From the NCBI GenBank assembly GCA_965205975.1, contig OZ242195.1, positions 3,072,001 through 3,136,000 of the forward strand: 64,000 nt of DNA, read 5' to 3'. Below the pieces are notes generated by a model. That model was not told the DNA's origin. It did not search any database and worked only from the letters and a program-made list of their open reading frames with translations. Positions 1-55,214 of the stretch are shown here, in pieces. The stretch comes from Candidatus Latescibacterota bacterium. Lineage in GTDB: Bacteria; Latescibacterota; UBA2968. Position 1 is the stretch's first letter, and each line of letters starts with the position of its first letter. Position numbers and translations under genes: made by a program.

Positions 1-729
1 ATCCCAGCCCCGTCCACCTTCTTGCTTGTCGAGAAAGGTTGACGACATACTCAAGGGCAACAGAATCTCAAAATCCAGACTTGAATTTAGGGGAGGCGTT
101 TCCACAATGCCCTCTATTTTTACAGGGACCACTGCTTTTTTTGTCGGGTTAAAAGATAAAGACAATTTCGGAGGTGGTTGTATCCATAACACTTGACCTA
201 CTAAATTGCCAATATTGTTGGAAAGCGTCTGAGCGAATGCGCGTGTTATTGCGACTTGCCCTGGACGTGAGAGGAATGTACCATGAATAAGCGGGAATGA
301 AAAAATCTCCACGAAACTCCTATCTACCAACACGACCTTATCTATATCTCTCAGAAAATCTTTGTGAGTACCTACGTGCCAAATTCTCATATCAGGATGG
401 GAAAAGGCACCAAGTATACGGGTTGTGGCCTCGATCTCAGGAATCTCGGCAGACATCGCCGATGCCAATGAAACTGGAAAACTGGTAGGCTCAGCTCCTG
501 TGCCCGCCAGAGGACCCATACCTATTTGTCTGAACTTTGCCTTCCCAGTAATGCGGTATATGCGATGATGGTCTTTGTGGAACTTATCAAAGCTCCAATC
601 ATACAGGACGTAAAGCACGCAAAGATAGGTGCAGGCAATCCCTATCCCCAAACCCAGCAGGTTAATGGCGGCATACGTTTTATATTTGAGAGCATTGCGA
701 AACCAGGTTCGGAAATAATTGAAAAGCAT
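1..729 (-). CDS. FtsX/MacB-type ABC transporter permease, N-terminal part (runs off window); paralog of 2649-5129
   Basis: Manual translation from ATG at 729: MLFNYFRTWFRNALKYKTYAAINLLGLGIGIACTYLCVLYVLYDWSFDKFH..., open to position 1 and collinear with the 826-aa permease; absent from the ORF track because no stop is in the window. Confidence 0.9.
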   Translation of the reverse strand, partial: MLFNYFRTWFRNALKYKTYAAINLLGLGIGIACTYLCVLYVLYDWSFDKFHKDHHRIYRITGKAKFRQIGMGPLAGTGAEPTSFPVSLASAMSAEIPEIEATTRILGAFSHPDMRIWHVGTHKDFLRDIDKVVLVDRSFVEIFSFPLIHGTFLSRPGQVAITRAFAQTLSNNIGNLVGQVLWIQPPPKLSLSFNPTKKAVVPVKIEGIVETPPLNSSLDFEILLPLSMSSTFLDKQEGGRGWD

Positions 730-779
730 TGGTTACCCTTGGCAATCAAGAGACGCTTGATCTCAGCTAACTTTCGCCA

Positions 780-1874
780 TTAGCTGGTAGGGGTTTCAGG
801 AGGGCCAATAAGACGATATACCCTGATCCTACCATTCGTATTCTCGTTATCTGTCGGAGATAAATACCTATATACAAACATCCCATAACAATTAAAAACA
901 TCGTTTACACCCAGTTCGTTTTTTATTTTTTCTGCATAAGGCTCTCCACTCGGATCTGATAGAAGTATCAGAGCTGTGCTATTTGATGAATCATTGAATA
1001 GATATCTGAGCAACATATCTCCCGAAGATAAGAGATGCATGCCGTTCAAGCGGCTGAAATTGTGTATATCACTTGCCAATTCTTTCTGAGTTTTGCTATC
1101 GTCCATTTTAAAGCGAATAAACTTAGGCTGACTCATGGTAATGGGCTTAAGAAAACGTTGTGTTATCAAATCAATTCGCATAACCTTCTCTTCCCAGGGC
1201 AGGACAAAGTGTATGATTTTTCGCGCTTCGTCATAAGCAAGCCCTTGAAAACGCTGCAACATAAAAAATAGGTCCATGTATTGTGCATCACAGACTTTGA
1301 ACTTTACGATATCTTTACCTGTTTCAAGTGAGGTGACGCAAAGCATACCGTTTTTGTCTTTGTCAACGTAAGTATGAATAAAGTTTTGATCTTCAGAAAC
1401 CATCATGCGATTAATGAAACGTCTCTCCGGCAGTTTCAATTGTCCTAAAAATTCACCTTTGATCGAGAATCGAAGAATCTGCCCGGCTCCCGCATCGTAG
1501 ATCAGCATTTGGTCGGTATTCGGTATCATTGTTGGCTCTCGCGGTATCTTGTACTGGCCTTCCATACCCCCTCGGTTGCCGATAGACCACTTGTAGTTAC
1601 CCTCTCTGTCAAAAACTTCGACACTCCTTCTCAAGCCATCTAAAACAATGATATAGTCCTTCACAACTGTGATAGAACTTACTACCCCAAGTCCTGGCCT
1701 CATCTCCGGGAATTCGAGTGTAATCTCGTCAACCAATGAAAGTTGCGTTCCTTGCGCTTGCTTAAGGACGACCTCTTCTTGCTGGTTTTCAACAGCACTT
1801 TTTTCGCAACTTCCAAAGATAAGAAAGAAGAGTGCCATCAATCTCACAGGGGCTAATAACTTTTTTCGATTCAT
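780..1874 (-). CDS. Six-bladed (NHL-like) beta-propeller lipoprotein, module 1
   Basis: Signal peptide with lipobox-like IFGSC; IGNRGGMEGQYKIP blade motif; paralog of 5180-6307. Confidence 0.8.
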   Translation of the reverse strand: MNRKKLLAPVRLMALFFLIFGSCEKSAVENQQEEVVLKQAQGTQLSLVDEITLEFPEMRPGLGVVSSITVVKDYIIVLDGLRRSVEVFDREGNYKWSIGNRGGMEGQYKIPREPTMIPNTDQMLIYDAGAGQILRFSIKGEFLGQLKLPERRFINRMMVSEDQNFIHTYVDKDKNGMLCVTSLETGKDIVKFKVCDAQYMDLFFMLQRFQGLAYDEARKIIHFVLPWEEKVMRIDLITQRFLKPITMSQPKFIRFKMDDSKTQKELASDIHNFSRLNGMHLLSSGDMLLRYLFNDSSNSTALILLSDPSGEPYAEKIKNELGVNDVFNCYGMFVYRYLSPTDNENTNGRIRVYRLIGPPETPTS

Positions 1875-1941
1875 GAGGATAATCCTTTCTTATCGTTGGC
1901 TCGGTGCCCCCAGTCTGTTTACCGAGAACACCAAGCCAATC

Positions 1942-1971
1942 TTGAGCCTATCAAGCTCGGTTGCACACTTT
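1942..1971 (+). promoter_or_regulatory. Conserved motif TTGAGCCTATCAAG-N7-GCACACTTT downstream of peptide gene 1, inverted relative to 2454-2486
   Basis: Near-identical copy at 6375-6404; reverse-complement copies at 2454-2486 and 6711-6743. Confidence 0.6.
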
Positions 1972-2211
1972 TTTCTATGATTAAGATCAGCAATTAAGAG
2001 TACACCTAAAGCTCACTCAGAAGAAAGAAGCCAGTCTAAAGTTCATAGAAAAGAAAAATGATCGAATTCACTTGAGATAGAACTTTTGCCCAGAGATGTG
2101 TGGGTATCTGTCAATCCAGGCGACTTCGATTCTTTTTATGAATTAGCAATACCTTAGACTGAATGATGGGTAGCTAAAGATGCTCTCAAGCATCAGAGAT
2201 TCCAGCGCTAA

Positions 2212-2421
2212 CTAGCCGCACGTAATAGTCTCCTCGTCATTATAGAAAATGTGAAGGCAGCTAGTATCGCACGTCACACTTCCCTCACATTGAATACAAT
2301 CAAAGTAATGTGCTCCGTAAGAGTCTGTAAACCAATAATCAAGGCGGCTTCCACTGCCCTCATATCCATAGATACGCGGAGAAGACAGCCGAGACTGCAC
2401 AGGCTTTGTCAAAGTTTTCAT
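2212..2421 (-). CDS. Putative RiPP precursor peptide 1 (69 aa; leader MKTLTKPV...IYGY, 5-Cys core)
   Basis: Strong SD AAGGAGGTGA; leader shared with 6481-6678 while the core is unrelated. Confidence 0.8.
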   Translation of the reverse strand: MKTLTKPVQSRLSSPRIYGYEGSGSRLDYWFTDSYGAHYFDCIQCEGSVTCDTSCLHIFYNDEETITCG

Positions 2422-2453
2422 AGTATCACCTCCTTTCCTTATTGAGTCAAGTT

Positions 2454-2489
2454 AAAGTGTGCTTGCCCTTACTTGATAGGCTCAAGTAA
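2454..2489 (-). promoter_or_regulatory. Conserved upstream element of peptide 1 with perfect dyad TTACTTGA-TAGGC-TCAAGTAA
   Basis: About 70 bp upstream of the ATG is nearly identical to that upstream of peptide 2 (6679-6750). Confidence 0.6.
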
Positions 2490-2501
2490 AACCATTCTCT
2501 C

Positions 2502-2613
2502 AGGCTCACATTCCCAAATGCTTGAGCTTTGAACTGTTGCCTGCCCGCGCTGTCGCACGGCAGGCAGGTCTGCCGCCAATATTCGACTTGCCAGGGTCTG
2601 TCGGCGGCTTTTT
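2502..2613 (+). ncRNA. Putative structured RNA/repeat, copy 1 (hairpin plus terminator-like hairpin), with a 29-nt palindromic insertion
   Basis: Near-identical to 9925-10008 except for insertion 2540-2568 CCTGCC...GGCAGGCAGG. Confidence 0.45.
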
Positions 2614-2648
2614 ATATTTAAAAATTCGGACAAATAGATAACCGCGTA

Positions 2649-5129
2649 TCAATCCTCCCGCAGGGCATCTATTGGGCTTGCAGAGGCGACCTTCAGCGCG
2701 TGTACGAAGCCACCTAACAAGGGAAGTAGAATGCCTGCGAAAATCGCCGCTAAAATCGTCCCAACCCCGAATTGAAAGCGGTAGGCAAACATCGAGAGCC
2801 AATCATCCATAAAGAAGTAGGAGAGAGGGAGTGCGATGATGGCAGCTATAAATCCGGGTAGTGCGTAGTTCAGCACAATGCCACTGGCTATTTTGGATGG
2901 CACAGCACCCATGACCCTTCGGATGGCGATTTCCTTTCGCCTGCGCGCCACTGCCAGAGAGATCATGCCCAGAGCACCCATTGACGCGATGAGAACCGTG
3001 CACAGGGCTGCGCCAGAGACGATTTTGCTCCAACTAATTTCTCTGGCATAAAATTTTTGTCTGTCATCTTCTACGAAGGAGAACCGCAACAACCCATTGA
3101 TTTTCTGGTCTTTCCAAAGCTGTTCGAGATACGGGACAAATTCATCTGCACGGCCTTCTTCGATACGAACCAATATCTCTCCTAAGCTGGCTCGTTGCAA
3201 AGTCGCATCCGTACCAACGGTGATGATGGTCGGCGCAACCGTGTGGCTCAAGTCTCTAACGTGAAAATCTTTTACCACACCCACAATGCGTCCACTGACA
3301 TCACTCCCAAACACTCGTGATCTTAACTTTTTTTCTGCTGGGCTGATCACCTCTCCAAGAGGCTCTGAAGACGTTAAGTGCTTTAGGAAGGCTTCATTCA
3401 CGATTACATCGCCAGGGATAGGGTTTGGGTATAGCGACTTTCCGTGTAAGAGTTGCAACCCAACGGTATCGAGAAAAGGCCCATCCACTTGATAATAGGT
3501 GACCTCATCAATGAGTTTGCCACTGCTGTCTTTCATCAAAACTGTGTTTGACCATCCGAAGGGCAGATTCGTCCGCACATAGAAGGTCACGAGTGGAGAG
3601 GCTGATAAAGATGCCTGCAGGCGGTTGATCTCATTTTTTTTCAAGCCATCAGTATTGAGTTTGACGAGGTTCGTCGGGTCAAAACCTGGATACGTGGTGA
3701 GGATAAAAAAAGTCTGTTCAAAGATAATAATGGTGCAAAACACGAACACCAACGTCACGCCCGATTGGACTGCCATCAATACCTTTAAGAAAGGACCAGA
3801 CCTGACAGCTTTTGAGGTCTTGCTCAAAACGCTGATGGCAGATATAGATGACATAAAGGTCACCGGATAAAGGGCTGTTCCTATCCCTATCAGACAAGCT
3901 AATATCAAGAGAATAATTGCGGTCTGAAGGGGTGCCACCGAGGACGTGAGTGGGGTCTGTAAAATACCTTCAAGGGGGGGTGATGCTAACTCTGCAACTG
4001 CCAGGCCTATGATGCAAGCCAAAATGCTGTATCCAAAGCCTTCGACCAATAGCTGGTGCGTGAGGTCCTGGCGGTTCGCGCCGAAGACTTGCCTAATGCC
4101 CAATTCTTTGGTGCGTGAATTGAACCGCGCCACGTAGAGCAACACGTAATTCAGACAAGCGACGGACAAAATTAGGATACTCATACCACCGAGAATATAT
4201 CCATATAAGGGACTGGTGATTCGACTCACACCATACACCCGCTGTCGTATCGATCCAGGATTATGGTGCATATCTGTGATGGGTTGAAGCCTGCTTTTAA
4301 AGGTATCTAAATTCCATAATGAGTTAAGAGAAGCCTGCTTTTGGATCAGTCTCGTAAGTTTTCCATCTAATGCCCCGATATCTGATCCATCTGTCAAACG
4401 GATGTAATGTGAGGATTGAAAGCGCCAGTCCCAATCTCCTTCTTCCCTGTCGAGAAAGGTTGCAGACATACTCAATGGCAAAAGTATCTCAAAATCCAGG
4501 CTCGAATTGCGGGGAGGCGTTTCCACAATACCCCCTATTTCAATAGGGGCTACTATAGGTTCCAGGTCTTTAAAGAGACTATGAGAAAATCGCAGCCATA
4601 AGACTTTGCCAATCAAACTGTCAGTATCATTGGCCAGTGTTCGAGCGAATCTGCGCGTGATCACGACTTGCTCTGGTCGAGCCAAGAAAGTTCCGCGGAT
4701 AAGCGGAAAAGAGAACATCTCCTCAAAACTTCTATCGACGAACAGTACCTTTTTGATAGGGCGCAGAAAATTTCTGTGGGTACCCACATCCCAATTCGCA
4801 AGGTCACTCGTTACGCGGGTCGTAAGTTCAATCTCTGGAAACTCGGCAGACATCATGGGTGATAGTGCAACAGGAAAAGACATTGTCTCAGTCCCTGTCC
4901 CTGCTTTAGGAGAGCTTCCTATTGTTTCGCTGTACTTTACCTTTCCTGCAACGCGATAGATGCGCTGATGGTTTTCGTGAAATCTATCAAAGCTCCAATC
5001 GTACAGGATGTATAACACACAGAGATAGCAACACGCGATCCCGATTCCCAAACCCAGCAGATTAATCGTTGCATAAGCTCTATACTTGAGGATATTGCGA
5101 AACCATGTTCGGAAATAATTGAAAAGCAT
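2649..5129 (-). CDS. FtsX/MacB-type ABC transporter permease (two periplasmic plus two FtsX domains, no ATPase)
   Basis: INLLGLGIGIAC, RTKELGIRQVFGA, RRKEIAIRRVMGA, PIDALRED motifs; 826 aa. Confidence 0.9.
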   Translation of the reverse strand: MLFNYFRTWFRNILKYRAYATINLLGLGIGIACCYLCVLYILYDWSFDRFHENHQRIYRVAGKVKYSETIGSSPKAGTGTETMSFPVALSPMMSAEFPEIELTTRVTSDLANWDVGTHRNFLRPIKKVLFVDRSFEEMFSFPLIRGTFLARPEQVVITRRFARTLANDTDSLIGKVLWLRFSHSLFKDLEPIVAPIEIGGIVETPPRNSSLDFEILLPLSMSATFLDREEGDWDWRFQSSHYIRLTDGSDIGALDGKLTRLIQKQASLNSLWNLDTFKSRLQPITDMHHNPGSIRQRVYGVSRITSPLYGYILGGMSILILSVACLNYVLLYVARFNSRTKELGIRQVFGANRQDLTHQLLVEGFGYSILACIIGLAVAELASPPLEGILQTPLTSSVAPLQTAIILLILACLIGIGTALYPVTFMSSISAISVLSKTSKAVRSGPFLKVLMAVQSGVTLVFVFCTIIIFEQTFFILTTYPGFDPTNLVKLNTDGLKKNEINRLQASLSASPLVTFYVRTNLPFGWSNTVLMKDSSGKLIDEVTYYQVDGPFLDTVGLQLLHGKSLYPNPIPGDVIVNEAFLKHLTSSEPLGEVISPAEKKLRSRVFGSDVSGRIVGVVKDFHVRDLSHTVAPTIITVGTDATLQRASLGEILVRIEEGRADEFVPYLEQLWKDQKINGLLRFSFVEDDRQKFYAREISWSKIVSGAALCTVLIASMGALGMISLAVARRRKEIAIRRVMGAVPSKIASGIVLNYALPGFIAAIIALPLSYFFMDDWLSMFAYRFQFGVGTILAAIFAGILLPLLGGFVHALKVASASPIDALRED

Positions 5130-5179
5130 TGGTTCTCCTCAGCAATTAGAGGATGCTTGAGCACACCTCACTTTTACCA

Positions 5180-6307
5180 CTATTCGGCAGGGTTTGCAGG
5201 AGCATCAATAAGACGATAAACACGGATATTACCATTCGTATCCTCGTTATCAGAAGGAGGCGAGTACTTATAAACAAGCCTGCCTTGACAAGTAAAAATA
5301 TTTCGTTCCAATTCATTGTTTACTTCTTGTGCAGAAGGTTGCACGCTCAGGTCTGATAGAAGTATAAGCGCGGTACTATTTGAGGGATCCCTAAAATCGT
5401 ACCTGAACAAAATATCTCCCGAAGGGAGGAGATGCATTCCGCTTAATCTACTAAACTTACCAAAGTTAGGTGGAGGGGAGAATAATCCTGTTTTATCATC
5501 ATCTAATTTGAGACTGACGAATTTGGGATGATTTGTGGTTATAGGGGGGAGAAAATCTCGTGTCGCCAGATCAATTCTCATCACTTTATCTTCCCAAGAT
5601 AGGGCAAAATATATGATTTCTCGCGCCTCATCATAAGCAAAGCCGTGAGAACGCTGGAACATAAAAAAAGCCCTCTCGTATTGAGCCTCGCAGACTTTGA
5701 ACTTTGCAAGGTCTTCACCCGTATCAAGGGAGGTAACGTAAAGCATACCGTTTCCTTTTCGGTCACCATAAGGATAAATGAGCTTGCGATCTTCAGAAAC
5801 CACCAGGGGATTAATAAGGCGTCGTTGGGGCAGTTTTAATCGTCCTAAAAATTCACCTTGAACGGAGAAGCGAAGCGTCTGCCCAGTCCCGCCATCGTAG
5901 ATCAGCATTTGTTCGGTATTCGGTATCATCGTTGGCTTGCTCGGTGATTTGTACTGGCCTTCTCCCTCTCCTCGACTGCCAATAGGCCACTTATAGTTGC
6001 CTGCTCTGTCAAAAACTTCGACACAACTTCTTAGAACATCAAAAATAATGATGTAGTCATCCATCACCGCAATTGAGCTTACCATCCCAAGTGCGGGACC
6101 TGTCTCTGGACGTTCGAGTGTAATGCCATCAATTAAAGATAGATGAGCCCCTTGTGTTTGCACTTTGAGGACGATGACATCTTGTCGCGATTGAAAACTC
6201 GCCATCCCATCTTGCTGGTTTTCAACCGCACTTTTTCCGCAACTCCCGCAGATCAGACACAGAAGTGTCAGCCCCCCTACTTGAACCCATAGCTTGTTGC
6301 GAGTCAT
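5180..6307 (-). CDS. Six-bladed (NHL-like) beta-propeller lipoprotein, module 2
   Basis: Lipobox-like ICGSC; IGSRGEGEGQYKSP motif; paralog of 780-1874. Confidence 0.8.
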   Translation of the reverse strand: MTRNKLWVQVGGLTLLCLICGSCGKSAVENQQDGMASFQSRQDVIVLKVQTQGAHLSLIDGITLERPETGPALGMVSSIAVMDDYIIIFDVLRSCVEVFDRAGNYKWPIGSRGEGEGQYKSPSKPTMIPNTEQMLIYDGGTGQTLRFSVQGEFLGRLKLPQRRLINPLVVSEDRKLIYPYGDRKGNGMLYVTSLDTGEDLAKFKVCEAQYERAFFMFQRSHGFAYDEAREIIYFALSWEDKVMRIDLATRDFLPPITTNHPKFVSLKLDDDKTGLFSPPPNFGKFSRLSGMHLLPSGDILFRYDFRDPSNSTALILLSDLSVQPSAQEVNNELERNIFTCQGRLVYKYSPPSDNEDTNGNIRVYRLIDAPANPAE

Positions 6308-6374
6308 GACTTATCACCCTTTCCCTATTGTAAAATCAGTGCTCCTGTAATATTTTGAGAGCACTGAGTCAATT

Positions 6375-6404
6375 TTGAGCCTATCAAGCTTGATTGCACA
6401 CTTT
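6375..6404 (+). promoter_or_regulatory. Conserved motif TTGAGCCTATCAAG-N7-GCACACTTT downstream of peptide gene 2
   Basis: Copy of 1942-1971; inverted partner at 6711-6743. Confidence 0.6.
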
Positions 6405-6480
6405 TATTTTTTACTGAACATACTTCATTATGGCAATAAAAAAGATAAAATAGAAGACAGATCTCTTTAAAAGCCAGCCC

Positions 6481-6678
6481 TTATCCCCAAGACCGAGCAC
6501 CAGGAGGAAAGCACTGCAAAACGGAACGCCAAACGAACTGGCACTCATACAAATCAACAGGGTTTCCATCTACAACGCCATCTCCAACGTCTACCCAGGC
6601 AAGTCCAACTCCAAACTCGTATCCATATATAGGCGACGCCATATTCTGAATCTTCACTGGTTTGGTCAATGTTTTCAT
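6481..6678 (-). CDS. Putative RiPP precursor peptide 2 (65 aa; leader MKTLTKPV...IYGY, 2-Cys core)
   Basis: SD AAGGAGGTGA; shared leader with 2212-2421. Confidence 0.8.
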   Translation of the reverse strand: MKTLTKPVKIQNMASPIYGYEFGVGLAWVDVGDGVVDGNPVDLYECQFVWRSVLQCFPPGARSWG

Positions 6679-6710
6679 AATATCACCTCCTTTCCTTATT
6701 GCGTCAAATC

Positions 6711-6746
6711 AAAGTGTGCTTGTCCTTACTTGATAGGCTCAAGTAA
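6711..6746 (-). promoter_or_regulatory. Conserved upstream element of peptide 2 with dyad TTACTTGA-TAGGC-TCAAGTAA
   Basis: Same as 2454-2489. Confidence 0.6.
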
Positions 6747-6766
6747 AACCGTTCTGTTCTTAAATA

Positions 6767-7489
6767 TCAATAAATAAATGTAGATAAAGGATCTATATCA
6801 AAATCTTTGGCAATAATTTGAGAATAGGGCACTCCTTTAAGATGATCGTTCAGAAGTGGTTTTTGCAATCGCAAATGTCTTTGAATCACACCAAAAAAGA
6901 GGACTGTATTTTGAGGGCGATCTTTTGAGGATAGATGACAATGCGTTATGATATTCTTTTCATTGACAACAAAGATAGCCGGGGTGCGATGAGTAAGCAT
7001 TTCATTTTGGAATAGCATGTTCTCCGTATCCGGAAGCAACTCGTAATGGAGGTTAAAACTCCTTTTGTATCTTTTTAACACGCCCGCAGGAGCATTGGCA
7101 AAAGCATAAATTGGAAAGCGTTTTGAGGGATCCTGATTTTGGTACACATGCTCCAGTAACTTTATCTGGGTGATTAGACATGGCTGACAGTCTTGTGGGC
7201 TGAAGACCAGAACCAGTCCTTTTCCTGTTTCGGAAAAGTCTGTTGAAATCCAGTCGCCATTTATGTTCTTCAATTCCAACTTCGGAAATTCCTGTCCTTG
7301 ATAATTGGATGCGTAGGTAGAGGCATTTATATGCTCTTTGTAATCGGCATTCTCTATTCGGAGTTCTCTGATTGTTTTCCAATGACCAGAGTTCGTATTT
7401 CTCAATTTCCATATCCCGAATAACGCAACCAGAAGAAGAACAGATAACAGGATATTCAAAATCAGCGACATTTTCCGAATTTCTTGCAT
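6767..7489 (-). CDS. Membrane-anchored redoxin/AhpC-TSA (thioredoxin-fold) protein
   Basis: N-terminal TM helix; FPKLELKNING, VFSPQDCQPC (CxxC), TPAIFVVN cis-Pro motif. Confidence 0.75.
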   Translation of the reverse strand: MQEIRKMSLILNILLSVLLLVALFGIWKLRNTNSGHWKTIRELRIENADYKEHINASTYASNYQGQEFPKLELKNINGDWISTDFSETGKGLVLVFSPQDCQPCLITQIKLLEHVYQNQDPSKRFPIYAFANAPAGVLKRYKRSFNLHYELLPDTENMLFQNEMLTHRTPAIFVVNEKNIITHCHLSSKDRPQNTVLFFGVIQRHLRLQKPLLNDHLKGVPYSQIIAKDFDIDPLSTFIY

Positions 7490-7632
7490 TTACTTTCTCC
7501 CCATCACCAAAAGCAACCACAGATAAACCGATGAACACGGATGGTTGCAGGTTTAGGACCTGCACTGGAGGCCATAATTCAGTGCTACGCTTGTCTCAAA
7601 TGCGGGCAACCACGAGGGTTGCCCCTACGATT

Positions 7633-9534
7633 TCAAAAAAAATCAACAACAACATCGGCCATCTTTTTACGTCCTTCGGCACTAATTATCTCAGTCGCCG
7701 GAATGCGATGTGTTGATTCCAAGTTCAATATCGTTTGACAGATTTCCTCTCTACAAAGCGGTTGACTCACGACTGTGTTGACCGTGTGATTTACAATTTT
7801 TTTCTTATCGCTAAAAACGAGCAGAATAACTTTTCCTTTTCCCAGGCTCTCTAAAACTCGGATATTTTCCTGTATAAATTCAGGCTCGTCGATAGAATTA
7901 ACGAGCAAGACATAAGCATCGGGAACGGTTCCAAAAAGCAAGATCAATGAGGGCAAAGTGTAACTCTGAGATTTTTCGTAAAAGTTATGAGGTATGATAC
8001 CGGACTGGCCACCAACGACGATGATATCCGGGTCTGATTGTTCGATACCGACCATAGCGGAATTTAGAAGTGGAATGTGCAAATCCATGGGAATCTGGAT
8101 GCTCTGATGCCCGTCATATCCATTTGGAAATGTAAAATCGAAATCAAATAATGCAGATTGGTGTTCTGTACCCAATTGACCAACTTTATAGCCAATTTTC
8201 TGTAATTGTTTTCTGAGTGCCAATTGAGCAGTGAACTTTCCTTGCTGCGGTCCTGTTCCAAACACGCCCAAGACAGGTTTCTGGCTTCTGCTTCTCCAAT
8301 CATAAGTTTTGGTCAAAGCCTCATAAGTTGCAAAATCTATGGTCGGTGCTGCATAATGCAGATGTTTTTCTTCAAATGCTTTGCTTATGCTTTCGTATTG
8401 CTTATTTGCAATGGGGCTCAGACTATACACATTCTTGTTATGCTTCAATGCCAATTCCAAAGATTCTTGTAACACATCGCGTTTCTTAATCCGGCTAATT
8501 TCATCCAAATAGCCCAGAACGAGCGTATCGCCGTATTGCAGACAATCTTCCAAATTTTGTTGTATGATCAAATTAGATTCGGACCCCCCAATAACCTCCC
8601 CACAATCTTTGCCTATGGTTCTTTTTCCAATAACATCAACTACCCTTGTAATTCTAAACGGCAATAACTCCCGAAACCGCACCAACCCATGCATTTCTTT
8701 GTTATAGGGGAAAATAACAGCCTCGTCTATCCAGCTTGGCGCGTTTGCCTTATTGAGATCGCGGATAGAAACATCTGAGCGAGATCTGGGCATCCCGCTC
8801 ATCGCATAAGTGCTACTATCTACCAGGTCGGGACATTGACTTAAGGAATGTCTCTGCAAAATTTCTGTCAGATCGTTGAACGAGATACAACCATATTTCT
8901 CTATGATCAGAGCAATCAAGCCGGAAATATGCGGAGCCGCAAAGCTCGATCCCCCAATAAATATCTGTTTGCCTTCCAGCCAATTTAGGCGTTGACGATC
9001 ACCCCGTGCGACAAACTGTATTTTTTCGTGCGGGTCATAAAAGTAATCAAACTTGCCATTAACTTTTCCTCCTGCTACGCCAAAGACATTGGGAAAAGAC
9101 GCGGGAATACTCGGTTGTCCATCATTTGATGTCGCAGCAACAATGAACGTCTGGTGTTTGTGTGCAAAATCACAGGCCTCCTTCAAAACATCGCTATCTC
9201 TCTCATCCAGAGTACCTAAACTCAAATTGACAATGTGACAGTGATGTTCAACACACCAGTAAATCGCCTTGCACAAAATGTCCATTTTCGTTATCAGTTC
9301 TGACTTAAAAATTTTGACAGGCAAAAATTCAGTATTTGGAGCTTTGGAGTGGATGACGCCAATACAGGCTGTGCCGTGGCCTATCATATCTTGGTAATTT
9401 GAATCTTGATCGCCATTACAGAAACTGGTACCATTCAACACATGCACATTTTTTTTACCCGTATTAAAACCGCTATCAATCACGCCTACCCGGGTACCTG
9501 TACCTGTCAACCCAGAAAAAAAATGCTCCATCAA
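7633..9534 (-). CDS. S8 (subtilase) serine peptidase fused to a DUF1611/TIGR04066-like P-loop peptide-maturation domain
   Basis: Triad motifs VIDSG, GHGTAC, GSSFAAPH; C-terminal part with IFPYNKE, GKDCGE, VFGTGPQQGKFTAQLALR, PDIIVVG. Confidence 0.8.
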   Translation of the reverse strand: MMEHFFSGLTGTGTRVGVIDSGFNTGKKNVHVLNGTSFCNGDQDSNYQDMIGHGTACIGVIHSKAPNTEFLPVKIFKSELITKMDILCKAIYWCVEHHCHIVNLSLGTLDERDSDVLKEACDFAHKHQTFIVAATSNDGQPSIPASFPNVFGVAGGKVNGKFDYFYDPHEKIQFVARGDRQRLNWLEGKQIFIGGSSFAAPHISGLIALIIEKYGCISFNDLTEILQRHSLSQCPDLVDSSTYAMSGMPRSRSDVSIRDLNKANAPSWIDEAVIFPYNKEMHGLVRFRELLPFRITRVVDVIGKRTIGKDCGEVIGGSESNLIIQQNLEDCLQYGDTLVLGYLDEISRIKKRDVLQESLELALKHNKNVYSLSPIANKQYESISKAFEEKHLHYAAPTIDFATYEALTKTYDWRSRSQKPVLGVFGTGPQQGKFTAQLALRKQLQKIGYKVGQLGTEHQSALFDFDFTFPNGYDGHQSIQIPMDLHIPLLNSAMVGIEQSDPDIIVVGGQSGIIPHNFYEKSQSYTLPSLILLFGTVPDAYVLLVNSIDEPEFIQENIRVLESLGKGKVILLVFSDKKKIVNHTVNTVVSQPLCREEICQTILNLESTHRIPATEIISAEGRKKMADVVVDFF

Positions 9535-9568
9535 AAACCTCTCGCAGTGTTTAGTTCATAACGTTGAT

Positions 9569-9862
9569 CTATTCGGGAATAAGTGAATGTGTATCAGTGG
9601 CTAATTTCTCATATATATACTTCGCGACCGAATGTGTCGAAGTTAGCATTTCTTCTGTGAGTTCTTCGTCCTCTACGATCACATCAAATGCATCCTCTAA
9701 GCCTGTCACCAGGGCCAGGGTAGAAATAGAGTCGAGTATAGAATTCAAAGGAAGATTGTCCCAATCTATATCATCGGATGTGACTTCACGGTCTAATGCC
9801 TTCAGAACCAAATCTTGAATCTGATTCTCAATCTCAGATATTGTTATTGTATTTTTTGTCAT
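9569..9862 (-). CDS. Acyl carrier protein
   Basis: Acidic 97 aa; LDSISTLALVTGLEDAFDV phosphopantetheine-site motif. Confidence 0.8.
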   Translation of the reverse strand: MTKNTITISEIENQIQDLVLKALDREVTSDDIDWDNLPLNSILDSISTLALVTGLEDAFDVIVEDEELTEEMLTSTHSVAKYIYEKLATDTHSLIPE

Positions 9863-9889
9863 AAAATTTTATATCCGATTGCACGATGG

Positions 9890-9918
9890 TTGACAATCTA
9901 CCCCTCAAAAGATACCTT
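9890..9918 (+). promoter_or_regulatory. Sigma70-type promoter TTGACA-N17-TACCTT for the antisense structured RNA
   Basis: TTGACA 9890-9895, 17-bp spacer, TACCTT 9913-9918; the repeat begins about 7 nt later. Confidence 0.55.
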
Positions 9919-9924
9919 ACTATC

Positions 9925-10008
9925 AAGCTCACATTCCCAAATGCTTGAGCTTTGAACTGCAGTCTGCCGCCGACACTCGACTTGCCAGGGTCTGTCGGCG
10001 GCTTTTTT
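9925..10008 (+). ncRNA. Putative small structured RNA, copy 2 (about 84 nt, ends in intrinsic terminator)
   Basis: Hairpin AAGCTCA-CATT..AATG-CT-TGAGCTT, then GCCGCCGACA...TGTCGGCGGC-TTTTTT; duplicated at 2502-2613. Confidence 0.5.
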
Positions 10009-10009
10009 A

Positions 10010-11377
10010 TCAATATGATGTGTTCTTTAACGCTTCTTCAGCCTTTGCCAAGTTTATATTCCGAACACATCCTGAACGGCATTCCCAGCCCACACCTTCA
10101 TAGTCAGCAATAGCAGCGATTTGCTCTCGCAAAGGATCGTTGCATAAATCAAGAACGCGCTTGCCCTTCAAGATGGGTAAAATCGGTATATGAAACGAGG
10201 AAATGGGATGTGCGATCAACAGTAGGGAACATTCACATAGCGACTTGAGGGATTTTGTCAATTGTCCCTGCCACATCTTTCGGGCATCACTTTGAATATA
10301 AGTCGGCTCCACGTCCAAGAGGCCCAACTCCACTGACGGGTCATATGCGATCACATGATACCCTTCTGAGATGAGCATGTTTCCGAGTTTTACGAATGGA
10401 CTATCCCTCAAGTCGCCTGTATTGGGCTTAAAACTCAAACCCAACATACCCAGTGTTCCTCGAACGGCAAGCGACCTTACCCTCCTTACCGTGGACCTGA
10501 TATGAAGATCATTACTGGCGATGATATTGGTCAGCAGAGGTAATTCGGGTTCTTGTCGTCCGTTAGATAGCCGCAGGAGTGCTGTAAGATCCTTCGGGAG
10601 ACAGGATCCTCCGAATGCGAATCCCGGCCTCATGTAGGCTTTTGACATATTGAGCTTGTTGTCTGAGCACACGACCTCCATTACTCTATTGCTGTCTATC
10701 CCGAGATATCTGCAAATATTCGATATCTCATTCGTGAAAGTAACCTTCATAGCATGAAAAGCATTGCATACATACTTCACCATTTCAGCGATCTCGTATT
10801 CGGTAATGTACACCGGCCCAGCTTCACCGTAAATATCTAACACGCGCTGGTAATAACCAGTCTTTGGAGCACCAATGATCCGAATCGGAGGATCATTCAG
10901 GTCCTCCATTGCGCTTCCCTCTCTCAAGAACTCCGGATAATACCAGACATTGCCAAAATTCCCGAAGGCTCCAGAGGCGATATTACGCGTCGTACCGGGC
11001 GGAACAGTGCTGCGCAAAACTATGTCAAACATGCCTCTTTTCTTTTTCACTATCTCTACCAGTGACGTTACGGCCTGATAAAGAAAACACAGATTTGGTA
11101 CTCCGTCTTTCTCACCTCGCGGCGTACCTACACAGATAATCGCTACACTCGCATCCTCGACAGCTTTGAAGTAGTCAGTCGAAAGCTGGAGCCTCCCACT
11201 TCTAAGTGCTGAACTTAGCAGGTCGCTTACGCGGGGTTCTGGTTCAGGTTCACCGGCAAAAAGATGGTGGATTCTCTCCTGGGAGACATCCAGACCTGTG
11301 ACGATATGACCTCGTTCAAGCAAGTAGGCAATATTCACAATGCCGACATGGCCCAAACCAACTACACAAATTTTCAT
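10010..11377 (-). CDS. UDP-glucose/GDP-mannose 6-dehydrogenase family protein (AlgD-like)
   Basis: GLGHVG Rossmann motif, ICVGTP, PEFLREG, PGFAFGGSCLPKD, GLSFKPNTGDLRDSP. Confidence 0.9.
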   Translation of the reverse strand: MKICVVGLGHVGIVNIAYLLERGHIVTGLDVSQERIHHLFAGEPEPEPRVSDLLSSALRSGRLQLSTDYFKAVEDASVAIICVGTPRGEKDGVPNLCFLYQAVTSLVEIVKKKRGMFDIVLRSTVPPGTTRNIASGAFGNFGNVWYYPEFLREGSAMEDLNDPPIRIIGAPKTGYYQRVLDIYGEAGPVYITEYEIAEMVKYVCNAFHAMKVTFTNEISNICRYLGIDSNRVMEVVCSDNKLNMSKAYMRPGFAFGGSCLPKDLTALLRLSNGRQEPELPLLTNIIASNDLHIRSTVRRVRSLAVRGTLGMLGLSFKPNTGDLRDSPFVKLGNMLISEGYHVIAYDPSVELGLLDVEPTYIQSDARKMWQGQLTKSLKSLCECSLLLIAHPISSFHIPILPILKGKRVLDLCNDPLREQIAAIADYEGVGWECRSGCVRNINLAKAEEALKNTSY

Positions 11378-11516
11378 CCTGCACCCTTACCTTCCATATG
11401 TCTCACTGACCCTAATCCTGATTGATTTCCAATATTTTTAATAGCATCAAATCTATATTTACCAGATTGAATTACCATTTACCGGGCAACCCAATATCAT
11501 CTGATATCGAACAGAA

Positions 11517-12518
11517 CTACTTGGTGAATTTCTGTTGTTCAATACAAGAGACTATGACCTCCGTTGTGTCTTCCCACTTTTTATTTTCAGGTTTGACTCG
11601 CGGAACTCTATTGCTAAGATTTGCCAATATTTCTTTAGTCACCTTACCAAGATCAGGGATTATTAATTGTCCACTCTCGACTAATTCTCGGTTTATGCAC
11701 ATTTCCCTTCTTCCAAGATAGATAGTAGGTACTCCTAAGAGAGCCCCTTCCCTTGCAACAGTATCTCCAGTAGTTACCACCAGGGCTGAATAGTAAATCA
11801 GGGAATGGATACTGGGACAAGGTTCAACAACCTTTCGGAAATTGGGGTGTTCAAACTCGAGATTTATTCCCCGTTCAAGGGAGGCTATGATGCTCATTCC
11901 AGTATTTAAAATCGCATTCGTCGCTTGCATAACTTCTTCCTGACCCAGGCGTCGATAGTTCATGCTAATAGGTGCAACATACCTGACGAAAACATACTCT
12001 CCTGGCTGAACGCCATAATCACCTAAAATCTTCGGTTGCGGGACGAATCGGTTCAAGTAAGCCAACTCTTTGAACCCGTTGTATTGAATGATGTTTCTGC
12101 CTGCCACTCCGAGTGCTTCAGGTAAGACAAGTTGATGAGCGAATAAAAGACATGGCCAAAAATTTAGCTTGTATTCGAAGTCGTCATAAAAAATCACAGA
12201 CCGTACGCGACAAAACCGCGAAACTATGCCCGAATAGAATCCACAACTCGCCAAAACATCTGTCTCCATTTCGCATACTATCTTCTTGAGATCAACGACC
12301 CTTTCCCATACCCCAAACATCTTTCTAACACCAGTTCTATGAGCACCCATTACACGAAAGGAACAAGGGAGGTCTGACTCCGCTATGGCAACAAGGTTAC
12401 CTCTTTGCCTGACAACAGCCGACACATCGTGTCTCGCCTTCAACGATTTGATGGCTGAATTAAAAAAATTGAGATGTGCGACGTGAAGAATGTCAAAGAG
12501 AATCTTCAAAGGTAGCAT
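11517..12518 (-). CDS. DUF354-family GT-B glycosyltransferase-like protein
   Basis: ILFDILHVAHLNFF, YNGFKELAYL, GDTVAREGALLGVPTIY motifs. Confidence 0.7.
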   Translation of the reverse strand: MLPLKILFDILHVAHLNFFNSAIKSLKARHDVSAVVRQRGNLVAIAESDLPCSFRVMGAHRTGVRKMFGVWERVVDLKKIVCEMETDVLASCGFYSGIVSRFCRVRSVIFYDDFEYKLNFWPCLLFAHQLVLPEALGVAGRNIIQYNGFKELAYLNRFVPQPKILGDYGVQPGEYVFVRYVAPISMNYRRLGQEEVMQATNAILNTGMSIIASLERGINLEFEHPNFRKVVEPCPSIHSLIYYSALVVTTGDTVAREGALLGVPTIYLGRREMCINRELVESGQLIIPDLGKVTKEILANLSNRVPRVKPENKKWEDTTEVIVSCIEQQKFTK

Positions 12519-12558
12519 CCTAAATTAGCCAAGTGATCTCTGTCCAAGTTCTATTGAT

Positions 12559-12792
12559 TTAATAGCCGTCATGTGCAAATACATACACATACCAAGAGGC
12601 CTGTTCTGGTCCTACCCCATTAGGGGGAGCTTCACAACCCCAAATTTTAGCGAGTCGAGTCACTTCTTGCTGGGCTTCCCTCTTAGAATTATAATGCGCC
12701 ACAGTCTTCCAGTTTCTGAAGGAGCGGAACCTGGAACGCCAATATCGCTTTCGCTCGTCGGGATCCATCGTAATTCCAACTCGACAGGCCAT
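12559..12792 (-). CDS. Small hypothetical protein (possible GIY-YIG-like fragment)
   Basis: 77 aa, RVGITMDPDER motif, begins 17 nt after the rSAM stop. Confidence 0.55.
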   Translation of the reverse strand: MACRVGITMDPDERKRYWRSRFRSFRNWKTVAHYNSKREAQQEVTRLAKIWGCEAPPNGVGPEQASWYVYVFAHDGY

Positions 12793-12809
12793 CTTTATCT
12801 CTTTATGGT

Positions 12810-14240
12810 TTACGAGGTTATTTCCAGATTATATCGTCGCTGCAACAAAGACGCATCCTCTTCTGCAATCTCCATACACATCTCCATCGCCAGTTCATAG
12901 CGATAACGTGTCTGTTCACAAGCAACAGGGTTGGGGTACATCGGGTCCCCCGTCGTCGTCCGAGCATCCCAAAGACATCCACCACCACACAGATTGCGCG
13001 CCCAGCATGTCTTGCACTCTGGGCGATTATTCACATTGAACTGCGCGTCAAAATGCTGCTGCTTTTCGCGATCAATACCCACAAACACATCACCCATCTT
13101 AAACTCGGGTGCATCGGCCAGACTCGAGCAAAAATAAATTGATCCATCTGCTGCAATAGCCAGATACTGCTTACCACCCAGGCATCCATGACAGGATTTT
13201 GCGCGCGTCAGCAATTTCTGAATCCGCGGATCAAACTCTTCACTCTCTTCACCATTCAGAATAGCTTTGAGCGCACGGCGGCTCCGCCTGTAAATTTGTT
13301 GTTTCAAAACAGGTATGTGTTCTTCCCGAATGGCATAAGGCGCATCGGGGGAGACAACCGCCGGACCGATGAGCGCGTTATCAGTACCCAATGAGCGCAA
13401 ATCATCGGCAATCTCATCCTCATCCATATCATACGCTGTCATAATAGCTTGCAGGTACACGCGCTCAGGTGCCTCAGCAGTCAATTTCTGTACATTCTTT
13501 GCCACGACATCATAAGTACCAGAACCATTGTGAAACTTGCGAATACGGTCCTGTGTCTTACGTCCGCCATCCAGGCTGACTTTAATTTGAAACTTTTCAT
13601 CGATCAAGAACTGCTTCATCTCGTCGGTCAACAGCGTGCCATTGGTCACAATGCCAAAACCAACCTGCACTCCCAGGCACGCGCCCAGAGATTTGGCAAA
13701 TGGGACAAGCTCTCTCATCAATGGAAAATTCAGAAGCGGCTCCCCGCCAAAAAAATCAATCTGGCACCGCCCCAAAGCCTGAGCTTCGGTGATGATCCAG
13801 CGTATCGATTGCTCGGCAACATCGGGTTGCATCAGCATCGCCTTACCGCCATAATCCCCGCCATGTGCAAAGCAATAAGCACACTGAATATTGCATGTAT
13901 GCGAAACGTGCAGCGACACCTGCAAACGATCTGTCTGTGATACCCCACAAGCTGCCACCCCTTCTGTCGTCGGCACCTGGGACACCAGAAGCAATGCACC
14001 ATCCGCAATCAACCCCACCTGTGCCAATTCCTCAATAGCCTCGGCAATTTCCTCTGCCTCGTATTGATCGGCCAACGTCTGGACAACCTGTGAAGCAGAT
14101 AAGCCCTCGCAACATTCTAAAATTGATTTGAAAAGGGGATCCAGTTCAAAAAACAGACCTGTCTCAATCTGATAGACAATCGGCTGATTTTGCTCTTCAG
14201 TTTGAAAAAGATGTATGTCGCATTTCTGAATGCATAGCAT
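12810..14240 (-). CDS. Radical SAM/SPASM peptide maturase with N-terminal RRE (CteB/QhpD-like)
   Basis: CNIQCAYC motif, FFGGEPLLN, SPASM cysteines CHGC...C and CKTC...CGGGC...C; PqqD-like N-terminus; SD GAGGAG favours ATG at 14240 over GTG at 14249. Confidence 0.9.
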   Translation of the reverse strand: MLCIQKCDIHLFQTEEQNQPIVYQIETGLFFELDPLFKSILECCEGLSASQVVQTLADQYEAEEIAEAIEELAQVGLIADGALLLVSQVPTTEGVAACGVSQTDRLQVSLHVSHTCNIQCAYCFAHGGDYGGKAMLMQPDVAEQSIRWIITEAQALGRCQIDFFGGEPLLNFPLMRELVPFAKSLGACLGVQVGFGIVTNGTLLTDEMKQFLIDEKFQIKVSLDGGRKTQDRIRKFHNGSGTYDVVAKNVQKLTAEAPERVYLQAIMTAYDMDEDEIADDLRSLGTDNALIGPAVVSPDAPYAIREEHIPVLKQQIYRRSRRALKAILNGEESEEFDPRIQKLLTRAKSCHGCLGGKQYLAIAADGSIYFCSSLADAPEFKMGDVFVGIDREKQQHFDAQFNVNNRPECKTCWARNLCGGGCLWDARTTTGDPMYPNPVACEQTRYRYELAMEMCMEIAEEDASLLQRRYNLEITS

Positions 14241-14268
14241 GCCAGGCACTCCTCAGAACAGATACAAT

Positions 14269-14445
14269 TTACTCAGGCTGATCAAAATTGTCCCAATCGT
14301 CATCATCAGGGAACGGCATGGGGGGAACAGTAATAGGATAAGGGGTACAGCCAACTTCAAAACTATCCGTCGTCTGATATGTGCTAATACCACCCTCTTT
14401 ATCCATTGTTCCATTGATCAAGATCAACTTGCGTCGAGTCGTCAT
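14269..14445 (-). CDS. Unannotated 58-aa putative rSAM precursor peptide MTTRRKLILINGTMDKEGGISTYQTTDSFEVGCTPYPITVPPMPFPDDDDWDNFDQPE
   Basis: Manual translation; SD AAGGAGG 14451-14457; first gene after the sigma54 promoter and directly upstream of the rSAM gene. Confidence 0.8.
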   Translation of the reverse strand: MTTRRKLILINGTMDKEGGISTYQTTDSFEVGCTPYPITVPPMPFPDDDDWDNFDQPE

Positions 14446-14503
14446 ATTATCCTCCTTAAATACAAAAATCTAAATGTCGTCATTGTCTTCGCTCCGTTTA
14501 TAT

Positions 14504-14520
14504 CGCAAGATCCGTGCCTA
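14504..14520 (-). promoter_or_regulatory. Sigma54 (-24/-12) promoter TAGGCACGGATCTTGCG
   Basis: GG-N10-GC with GGCACG and TTGC consensus; sigma54 activator gene adjacent. Confidence 0.8.
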
Positions 14521-14535
14521 ATAATGCATTAGCAT

Positions 14536-14567
14536 AAAAAAAAGCACTTAAAAACTCTCAAGTGCTT
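14536..14567 (-). terminator. Intrinsic terminator after the activator gene
   Basis: AAGCACTT-N10-AAGTGCTT followed by a T-run on the minus strand. Confidence 0.55.
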
Positions 14568-14630
14568 GAAAAAACAAGGAAATAAAATTTAAAAATTATT
14601 TGTACTGTAAATGCGGCATCCAGATATATG

Positions 14631-14746
14631 TGTACCTAATAGATACACATATAACCGTTCATTTAGATAAAATATGCATAACCGATTGATTAATATAAAA
14701 ATAAATTAAAGTGCATCTAAATGATACATTATTGTAAAATGATACA
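14631..14746. promoter_or_regulatory. Putative enhancer (UAS) sites TG(T/C)A(T/C)C-N5-GATACA
   Basis: TGTACCTAATAGATACA 14631-14647, TGCATCTAAATGATACA 14712-14728, half-site AAATGATACA ending 14746; 110-230 bp upstream of the -24/-12 site. Confidence 0.6.
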
Positions 14747-14758
14747 CCCATTCAACAT

Positions 14759-18841: not shown

Positions 18842-19616
18842 AATTTGTTGCGTCTCTTCGGGAACAGCGATATTGAACTTCGCCTATTGGTGGAGGTGAC
18901 TCTCGAATATGCTTCATAATAACAGATATGGGATTTTGTCCAGAAAAGGGCGATGCGTCCGTGAGGACTTCGTATAAAATCACACCCAATGAGTACAAAT
19001 CTGACCGATGATCCACCCACAACCCCTTACCCTGCTCTGGCGACATATATTCTGCCGTACCAATCGTTGCACCCGTCTGAGTAATGGAAGCACTGTGCAA
19101 ATGTCTGAATTTCGCCAATCCCAGGTCCAGAATCGTGGTTTCAATCCCCTCTTTTGTCTCCAAAACCATAATATTGGATGGCTTGAGATCGCGATGCACT
19201 GCACCCTGAGCGTGGACATAAGCCAATCCATCGGCAATTTGTTGTATCAAGTCAAAAAAGTGAGACGTCCGGAATTGCTCTAACAGTACACGATCGGCAA
19301 TAATTTTTTCCAATGTCTTTCCGGGCAAATATTCCATTGTAAAATAGGGACGGTCTTTGGCAAAGCCCCAGGTGTATGTGCGAACCAGACGCGGGTGCTG
19401 GAATCGGTTCAACACCTGAAACTCTCTGTGAAAACGACGGCGCACAGCCTGCTCATCCATCATTTCATTCAAAATTTTGAGCGCGCAATCCCGATCTTGC
19501 TCCAGGTCCAAAACCCGATACACTTCACCCATGCCCCCGGCTCCCAGGTGCGCCTGGATCTGGTATCTTTTGTCGAGAATTGTGCCAATTTCGAACATAC
19601 GCGTTATTCTTTGCAA
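18810..19616 (-). CDS. Hanks-type Ser/Thr protein kinase domain, separated from the activator by a 1-nt frameshift near 18876
   Basis: GAGGMGEVY, HRDLKPSN, DLGLA, YMSPEQ, DLYSLG; the kinase C-lobe end (LLAKERVDRYQSA) lies in the other frame. Confidence 0.85.
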   Translation of the reverse strand: MQRITRMFEIGTILDKRYQIQAHLGAGGMGEVYRVLDLEQDRDCALKILNEMMDEQAVRRRFHREFQVLNRFQHPRLVRTYTWGFAKDRPYFTMEYLPGKTLEKIIADRVLLEQFRTSHFFDLIQQIADGLAYVHAQGAVHRDLKPSNIMVLETKEGIETTILDLGLAKFRHLHSASITQTGATIGTAEYMSPEQGKGLWVDHRSDLYSLGVILYEVLTDASPFSGQNPISVIMKHIRESPPPIGEVQYRCSRRDATNCAEVAGKGAC

Positions 19617-54589: not shown

Positions 54590-54609
54590 TGTGAAAGATC
54601 AGGAAATAT

Positions 54610-55214
54610 TCAACTTTTCAGCGAAAGTTCAACCAGCTTTCCGCTCTCGTTATTCTCCCTAATCAGCAGTTCGATGAGATTACCACTTTCCCTCGCTGTT
54701 CGTCGCATCGCCTTTTCTTTTTTATAGAACCTACGTCATGTGTGACTTCAAGATCAGTGGTCAGATGAGCCCTGTCATTCTGAGCGGAGCGCAGCGGAGT
54801 CGAAGAATCTGCTGCTTGAACGGTGTTTATGGGTAACAGATGCTTCGTCAGCCTATCGGCTTCCTCAGCATGACATGGTGTAGTAGCACATTTACTTTTA
54901 AAGTCACATATCGCGTAGAACCTATTGATCCCAATCGGCAACACGCCACCTAACAAGGCACTCAGCGCTGCCGTGCCATAGTAATCGAAAGGGACAAAGG
55001 ACTTCCACAATTCGCAAATAAAGGGAAAATGGAGATTAAAAAAGAAAATAACCATCACGCGCGCAACGGCGACTAACAAGCAACCTACGATGGCAGACTT
55101 AAATAAGACATGGTAACCCGAATCCCGGAGCACGCCATAGCGTGTATAGTAAAGTCTCGTCAGAAACCAGTAACCGCCGAGAGTGGGAATAAAAAGTAAC
55201 CCAAGGCTACCCAA
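54610..55214 (-). pseudogene. Membrane protein gene interrupted by a MITE
   Basis: Removing 54734-54915 plus one TSD copy gives a continuous frame ...INRFYKKEKAMRRTARESGNLIELLIRENNESGKLVELSLKS*. Confidence 0.7.
54734..54915. mobile_element. 182-bp MITE with imperfect 15-bp TIRs and 9-bp target duplication
   Basis: TAGAACCTA at 54725-54733 and 54916-54924; TIRs CGTCATGTGTGACTT / AAGTCACATATCGCG (12/15 match). Confidence 0.8.

Follow-up and report, generated by a model that had tools for sequence, protein, structure and literature searches.

What is the role of two short, variable peptide genes that stand in tandem, each with its own beta-propeller lipoprotein gene and its own FtsX-type permease gene, in a genome of the uncultured phylum Latescibacterota? 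The genes were found at the left end of a 64,000-nt stretch of DNA (the window) from Candidatus Latescibacterota bacterium (GenBank assembly GCA_965205975.1, contig OZ242195.1, positions 3,072,001 to 3,136,000). The answer preferred here is that the peptide is a polymorphic toxin accompanied by immunity/efflux modules, both cognate and orphan, a tentative reading that was given a probability of roughly 0.45. Gene linkage, the age of the alleles, the presence of peptide-free propeller-permease pairs, the Cys pair and the RNA covariation were established by comparison of genomes; all biochemical steps, the binding of peptide by propeller, and toxicity are what we infer from them. Coordinates are those of the window, and negative numbers lie to its left. 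The genes are as follows.

6481-6678, minus strand: precursor peptide 1, 65 aa with 2 Cys; leader MKTLTKP...IYGY, then Glu; family Cys pair C46, C56.
5180-6307, minus strand: propeller 1, a DUF5128 six-bladed NHL-like beta-propeller lipoprotein, Cys23 invariant.
2649-5129, minus strand: permease 1, duplicated FtsX/MacB-type (ADOP-like), 826 aa, 8 predicted transmembrane segments, two periplasmic domains.
2212-2421, minus strand: precursor peptide 2, 69 aa with 5 Cys including CIQCE; family Cys pair C42, C51.
780-1874, minus strand: propeller 2, a DUF5128 propeller lipoprotein.
729 to -1772, minus strand (5' part, 1-729, inside the window): permease 2, 833 aa.
Past permease 2, left of the window: ABC exporter, gene interrupted at 162 aa by a Mutator/IS256 transposase.
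6767-7489, minus strand: membrane-anchored thioredoxin-fold protein with CQPC, a conserved member of the locus.
7633-9534, minus strand: S8 subtilase-DUF1611/TIGR04066-like P-loop fusion, Asp/His/Ser motifs intact.
9569-9862, minus strand: acyl carrier protein (ACP)-like gene with an LDSIS motif.

Two consecutive peptide/propeller/permease modules had been described in a sequence-only reading of the window. Both were present, with all genes on the minus strand, and both were recovered in contigs from public runs (e.g., 160-2533 and 4193-6909, no differing letters), which excludes an assembly artefact; the best of these runs may derive from the source sample itself. Its description of the paralogs also held: 13 of 21 leader residues are identical between the two peptides, 104 bp around the start codons (approximately 77 bp of them upstream) are 89% identical, the propellers and permeases are diverged paralogs (60% and 73% identical, respectively), and the Cys counts are 2 in peptide 1 and 5 in peptide 2.

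Precursors were collected by a profile search among 1.84 billion proteins, which returned 40 clusters (50% identity) with the family leader MKxLTKPxKxxxxSxxIYGY and, in 36 of the 40, Glu next. The same reading had held that the cores share nothing; pairwise BLAST indeed aligns the leader only, yet one Cys pair is invariant in 44 of 44 aligned rows (short hits P0012, P0034 and P0020, with two Cys each, were kept, and the 37-aa P0036, with one Cys, was omitted). The pattern aromatic-x-C-x(6-10)-C was found in 28 of 40 cores and 3.0 times in shuffles. Within CIQCE the second Cys varies and is Ser (CIQSE) in the near-twin P0011. The cores are acidic, with a mean net charge of -8.75. The AlphaFold2 (AF2) model of peptide 1 is a three-stranded sheet made of a beta-hairpin and a third strand, with 24 residues at a predicted local distance difference test (pLDDT) score of at least 90; it gave nothing at Z >= 2 against 48,161 PDB representatives, and the peptide had no usable match in the ESM Atlas. 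The leader pattern had 0 matches in the JGI metagenomes scanned. The four named records with encoded relatives are Ca. Latescibacterota metagenome-assembled genomes.

Besides the precursors of the window type (close type), a sister type with the leader ...KPQRE..NAVLAY was found in this genome (C1:2161453-2178235) and in G002, G012, and G015. Several sister-type precursors were missed by the profile search and recovered later by a local scan, and absences of precursors are therefore valid for the close type only. When leader-bearing peptides elsewhere were used as the test of the proposed peptide-propeller linkage, the two genes proved to be the constant unit, with a propeller in the cassette of 18 of 19 precursors of both types. 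The ten close-type precursors had a propeller in nine cases and a permease in eight, six in the gene order of the window and two permease-first. The sister-type precursors had no FtsX permease (0 of 9); their loci hold an RND pump and adaptor in its place, and in two near-identical loci of another family the propeller is directly upstream of the precursor. The claim that each peptide needs its own permease was not supported, as neither these sister loci nor the G008 cassette (two peptides, one propeller, no permease) agree with it. In the sister locus L001 (G000 C1:2164146-2173206), five propellers, one of them interrupted by IS3, accompany two precursors, and the first precursor has no clear start codon and overlaps the 3' end of the AraC regulator gene. 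Two broken sister-type propeller remnants were seen at L088 8566-10183 (G001), with no precursor or maturase nearby.

The cassette was more diverged than its surroundings. Across seven species, identities were 88-94% for S8, 84-91% for the thioredoxin-fold protein and 80-95% for the ABC exporter (intact genes), and 63-76% (one pair 89%) for propellers and 69-84% for permeases. Median pairwise synonymous divergence (dS) was 0.75 and 0.76 for propeller and permease, and 0.29, 0.39, and 0.37 for S8, thioredoxin, and ABC exporter, respectively; the ratio of nonsynonymous to synonymous divergence (omega) was 0.27 and 0.21 versus 0.16-0.18. High dS together with such omega values identifies the cassette genes as old, functional alleles under purifying selection. 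For an ATPase-linked ADOP permease, used as a control, identity was 92-94% among five of these genomes and 85% for one more. Between modules 1 and 2, dS was 0.98 for propellers and 0.73 for permeases. Since these values exceed those of flanking genes across species (0.29-0.39), the two modules are old alleles brought together; neither a recent tandem duplication nor the expansion by whole-module duplication that had been proposed is supported.

The expected pairing of propeller with permease was borne out by their correlated similarities (Mantel rho 0.44, p 0.002, 13 pairs; kin are not independent). A further 83 full-length propeller alleles had a median pairwise identity of 69%. Fourteen of the 24 most variable propeller positions are in top-face loops (loops inferred from secondary structure), and variation of the permease is concentrated in its periplasmic domains (66% identity versus 82-90% elsewhere), as is partly expected for the fold. 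Among genome pairs, G014 and G005 have the most alike cores and also the most alike propellers (89%).

Orphan immunity would predict peptide-free propeller-permease pairs, and such pairs do exist. Five were found in G005, G007, and G015, located elsewhere than the cassette, without a precursor upstream of them and in all five cases behind a sigma54 -24/-12 site (TGGCA-N-TTGC); two genomes have two such pairs per locus. One orphan propeller of G005 is 93% identical to propeller 1, and the propeller of G005's own cassette is 63% identical; the dS between that orphan and propeller 1 is 0.12, below the S8 value of 0.29 for the same genome pair. No close-type precursor was detected by pattern or profile in G007 (95% complete, 280 contigs) or G015 (one contig); G015 holds a sister-type locus. 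At the orphan locus L022, a protein with CarboxypepD_reg and a PD40/TolB-like propeller was seen at 11302-13371, with extra ADOP-like permeases and sulfatase-like genes around it.

Several results weigh against a toxin with allele-specific immunity. Gene-level positive selection was not detected (omega < 0.3). Core and propeller similarities were correlated at rho 0.35 (p 0.03) over 9 pairs and at 0.19 (p 0.16) over 7 genomes, a co-similarity that could arise from linkage alone, with kin not independent; for core and permease, rho was 0.00. Mean variability did not differ significantly between top-face and bottom loops (p 0.32). One propeller stands with two precursors in G008, and one or two propellers follow each of seven sister-type precursors (one without a clear start). 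Close relatives of the permease occur without any propeller, e.g., in G004 and G016, so that the permease is not confined to the system. Comparison of the peptide model with the PDB revealed no toxin fold, and typical membrane-active bacteriocins are not acidic, unlike these cores. Lastly, the exporter is broken by an insertion sequence (IS) in this genome.

The same data bear on a generic role, in which propeller and permease would be export or folding helpers that chaperone any peptide of the family, while diversity hitchhikes with the swapped cassette. The omega values of 0.21-0.27, the weak core-propeller and absent core-permease correlations, the single propeller for two peptides in G008, and a propeller that decays alongside its peptide in G001 all agree with such helpers. 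Intact peptide-free pairs under their own promoter, with two different alleles per locus and one of them recently acquired, count against them, because a generic helper would not need such pairs. This explanation was judged rather unlikely. Immunity or efflux modules of a polymorphic peptide toxin would account for the orphans.

The genes around the cassette were then considered as its maturation machinery. An S8-DUF1611 ortholog (>= 88%) is present in 7 of the 21 genus genomes, exactly those with intact close-type precursors. In an eighth, G001, the S8 ortholog, the leader start of the precursor and the propeller (early stop) have decayed together. The fusion is likely the leader protease and modifier. 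TIGR04066 matches its DUF1611-like domain, here fused to S8, with E 1.5e-35 and 123 bits, below the cutoff of 200. The ACP-like gene is found in 7 of 7 intact loci, and TIGR04069 is absent from its 14 NCBIfam matches. The intact ABC exporter of a relative has membrane and ATPase domains only, with no peptidase. Many further S8-DUF1611/ACP loci have no such peptide or propeller within the 20 kb fetched. Those with approximately 40% identity, an ABC exporter and other partners (L003, G000 C1:4635000-4644400, and L071-L087) hold no recognised precursor or propeller, and at least one such additional locus is present in 18 of the 21 genus genomes.

Upstream maturases shared by both modules had been suggested, and for S8-DUF1611 the co-occurrence agrees. 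The radical SAM gene at 12810-14249 was rejected: it belongs to a separate module with its own 58-aa precursor (14269-14445) behind a sigma54 site, and its matches occur in 16 of the 21 genus genomes, among them genomes without these peptides. Its score with TIGR04068 (CcpM) is 166, below the cutoff of 500, and all three copies in this genome have their own precursor. The module (12810-19616, minus strand) encodes a Ser/Thr kinase-AAA-TPR-GAF-sigma54 activator, followed by a sigma54 promoter, the precursor (MTTRRKL...GCTPYP...DDDDW) and a PqqD-radical SAM/SPASM protein. Its three copies are 91-92% identical; the activator is split here into overlapping open reading frames (ORFs; 18810-19616 and 14759-18841) and is one ORF of approximately 1600 aa in the other copies. 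A UDP-sugar dehydrogenase and DUF354 gene were not counted as parts of the locus because they adjoin just three of the seven intact loci (this genome, G006, and G008) in the fetched stretches.

Propellers 1 and 2 match DUF5128 (PF17170) with 49 and 43 bits (Pfam cutoff 22.9), and the AF2 model of propeller 1 (pLDDT 72) resembles six-bladed NHL propellers. All seven strong DUF5128 matches in this genome are within the two peptide loci; two weak ones are elsewhere. When propeller 1, entered as an alignment, was modelled together with core 1, the score was 0.01 with controls not folded, a result that weighs neither way on binding. Permease 1 has the Pfam domains FtsX and MacB_PCD in a duplicated, ADOP-like architecture with no adjoining ATPase; it scores 191.8 bits with TIGR03434 (ADOP), below the curated cutoff of 622.3, and its DarB match is weak (E 1.3e-23, 83 versus a cutoff of 700). 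As to the absence of an ATPase gene, also noted in the sequence-only reading, a motif scan located five LolD/MacB-type ATPases genome-wide, the closest at a distance of 283 kb; two ABC-like ORFs at 31055-34674 are outside that scan, and the ABC exporter gene is just left of the window. MacB-type ATPases adjoin ADOP permeases at two places in the genome, one with a confirmed adaptor, and could serve the cassette permease in trans. The genome has approximately 20 ADOP-like permease paralogs. Two more ADOP-like permeases in the window (35848-38220 and 46280-48727) are 24-27% identical to permease 1, with no adjoining ATPase.

These transporters also bear on a private-good scavenging system, in which the peptide would be secreted to chelate metal or carry nutrients, the propeller would be its cognate receptor, and the orphans would be pirate receptors. 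Siderophore piracy typically shows allelic diversity and orphan receptors, the cores are strongly acidic and bear Cys, Tyr, and Trp, and the sigma54 promoter of the orphan pairs would suit scavenging as well. However, transporters of the MacB/FtsX and RND kinds work as exporters, the fetched loci showed neither a TonB-dependent receptor nor an import ABC, and the two Cys are the only conserved metal-ligand residues, which makes this explanation unlikely. Still less probable is kin-specific signalling, with the peptide as pheromone, the propeller as receptor, and orphans that eavesdrop: a conserved leader with a variable core and, in sister loci, an AraC-type regulator immediately upstream of the first precursor speak for it, but window-type loci have no constant sensor kinase or receptor-coupled regulator, the anchored propeller has no cytoplasmic output domain, and the nearby kinase-sigma54 activator belongs to the radical SAM module, three copies of which are in the genome.

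Both precursor ORFs are flanked by inverted arms, which were examined as a possible RNA stem. The intergenic features of the two modules are as follows.

6711-6743, minus strand: 5' arm of the long-range stem around precursor 1.
6375-6404, minus strand: 3' arm of the long-range stem around precursor 1.
6336-6367, minus strand: hairpin in the gap between precursor 1 and propeller 1.
2499-2650, minus strand: structured intergenic repeat, with further copies at 9914-10007 and near -1951..-1771.
2454-2486, minus strand: 5' arm of the long-range stem around precursor 2.
1941-1971, minus strand: 3' arm of the long-range stem around precursor 2.
1896-1939, minus strand: hairpin 5' of propeller 2.

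Nine loci were aligned (G001, in which the 5' arm is lost, was omitted). Pairing was found in 93% of cells, compared with 27-41% in slid controls, and the scores for changed cells and covariation were reached by 0 of 500 shuffles; the structure was drawn from the same sequences as were tested, the events are few, and a local hairpin is an alternative fold for each arm. Two-sided changes occurred in seven pairs, four in the local downstream hairpin and three in the long-range helix (one weak and terminal). Clear covariation was seen as C-G/U-A (5 versus 4) and U-A/C-G/U-G, and a one-base insertion in G008 is matched in both arms. All eight one-sided changes in the long-range helices yield G-U, and RNA is therefore favoured over a DNA repeat. 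The stem is contained in the minimum free energy and centroid folds of both transcripts (z -1.9 and -7.3). A role of the arms at the DNA level is still conceivable; no strand-changing joint indicative of inversion was found among 15 of the 17 joints in public contigs, which drop rare variants. No comparable arms were evident around sister-type precursors. The stem may be an RNase III-type processing or stabilising element, which would probably permit separate excision or stabilisation of the precursor message.

Searches of positions 1-15000 against Rfam gave 0 matches, intergenic repeat included, and sigma70 and terminator scans gave chance-level results only. The three copies of the hairpin-rich repeat (2499-2650, 9914-10007, and -1951..-1771) lie 5' of precursor 2, ACP, and the ABC exporter, respectively. 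Module 2 could be lost by deletion between the direct repeats at 2469-2650 and near -1951..-1771. Contig depth over module 2 (160-2533) was approximately 0.55-0.65 of that over module 1 and its upstream genes (4193-12000) in three runs of two samples, a weak hint, as depth is no copy number, of module 2 being an accessory element within the population. Farther to the right, a cytosine methyltransferase-like gene (40013-41173) and a type I restriction-modification-like cluster (51557-63986) were noted, both judged by N-terminal sequence only.

Under the preferred toxin reading, ACP, S8-DUF1611, thioredoxin, and ABC exporter would form a conserved maturation and export chassis around an exchangeable precursor-propeller-permease cassette, whose old alleles would move from species to species through recombination within the conserved flanks, two of them being stacked in this genome. 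The S8 domain, predicted to be cytoplasmic, would cleave after ...IYGY and leave Glu as the new N-terminus, the amine of which the DUF1611 domain may acylate with an ACP-borne acyl group. The peptidase-less ABC exporter would carry the peptide into the periplasm, where thioredoxin may close the invariant Cys pair on the small beta-sheet. The propeller would bind its own peptide class and shield the cell, and the permease, with ATPase and adaptor borrowed in trans, would remove peptide from the membrane or periplasm. Related Latescibacterota would be the targets, and non-producers may retain the inducible orphan pairs as immunity. In its fullest form the proposal is doubtful: the peptides would be polymorphic, acidic miniprotein toxins of a class not described before, N-acylated and stapled by a disulfide, with S8-DUF1611/ACP as the maturation pair, DUF5128 as allele-specific immunity, ADOP-like permeases as membrane extractors, orphans as inducible acquired defence and a stem-excised message. 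The acyltransferase role of DUF1611 is putative, which counts against the toxin reading; the acyl step draws on a link of DUF1611 to DgcN and glutamate N-acetyltransferase activity. For DgcN, one report confirms only a part in the use of D-Glu (PMC12363236).

If correct, the proposal would supply DUF5128 propeller lipoproteins and ADOP-like permeases, two large families without known function, with a class of ligands that can be tested, and would assign to the S8-DUF1611/ACP pair a concrete substrate, cut after ...IYGY and before Glu. The 40 natural precursors and approximately 100 propeller alleles, including the 93%-identical orphan in another species, form a panel for cognate-versus-swap experiments. 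In an uncultured phylum, peptide-based antagonism or exchange among close relatives would be indicated. The covarying stem around the precursor ORF is a separate lead on how the excess of precursor over enzymes is set.

No description of the system was found in the literature on DUF1611, TIGR04066/69, DUF5128, Latescibacterota RiPPs (peptides made by the ribosome and then modified post-translationally), orphan immunity with propellers, RNase III on precursor mRNA, and ADOP, subscription papers and supplements being outside this search. Ranthipeptide (PapB-type) membership was rejected: Cys-x3-Asp/Glu, presumably the core motif of that class, occurs in 25 of 40 cores versus 20.9 in shuffles (p 0.10), as by chance. 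In lantibiotic immunity, NisI/NisFEG combine a peptide-binding lipoprotein with an ABC pump, and DarB and MacAB-TolC are MacB-type peptide exporters. A lipoprotein paired with a membrane pump is common to NisI/NisFEG and the present cassette, in which peptide binding would be the corresponding putative function; here, however, there is no adjoining ATPase or adaptor, the lipoprotein has another fold, and the peptide is neither a lanthipeptide nor a darobactin. With ADOP (TIGR03434), the cassette shares a duplicated FtsX permease of approximately 830 aa with no adjoining ATPase, and ADOP clusters are described there as of unknown role (PMC3914696). The present permeases differ in their score, which is below cutoff, and in forming one subfamily linked to propellers and peptides, a link suggestive of a class of substrates.

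Polymorphic toxins and polyimmunity loci have in common with this system a constant N-terminus and variable C-terminus, an adjoining lipoprotein partner, and toxin-free tandem partners (PMC3482391). Here, by contrast, the effector would be a processed peptide of 45-60 residues with no recognised toxin domain, and the partner is a DUF5128 propeller plus permease. The closest known system is CLI_3235/CcpM of Clostridia and Paenibacillus (TIGR04065, 04066, 04068, and 04069; SacP23 cluster), which shares a short basic leader, a Cys core, a subtilase, and TIGR04066-like, ACP-like, and ABC exporter genes (PMC10731318). The differences are that none of the 44 aligned precursors, nor the window peptides, match TIGR04065 at E <= 1, a dedicated CcpM is absent, and the S8/TIGR04066-like protein is fused and below cutoff; the cores form acidic beta-sheets in which a single Cys pair is constant, and the present system has, in addition, a propeller, an FtsX or RND pump, a thioredoxin, and orphan modules. 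By analogy, the cassette may work like a polymorphic toxin-immunity system on a chassis related to that of CLI_3235, from which it departs in both precursor and maturase.

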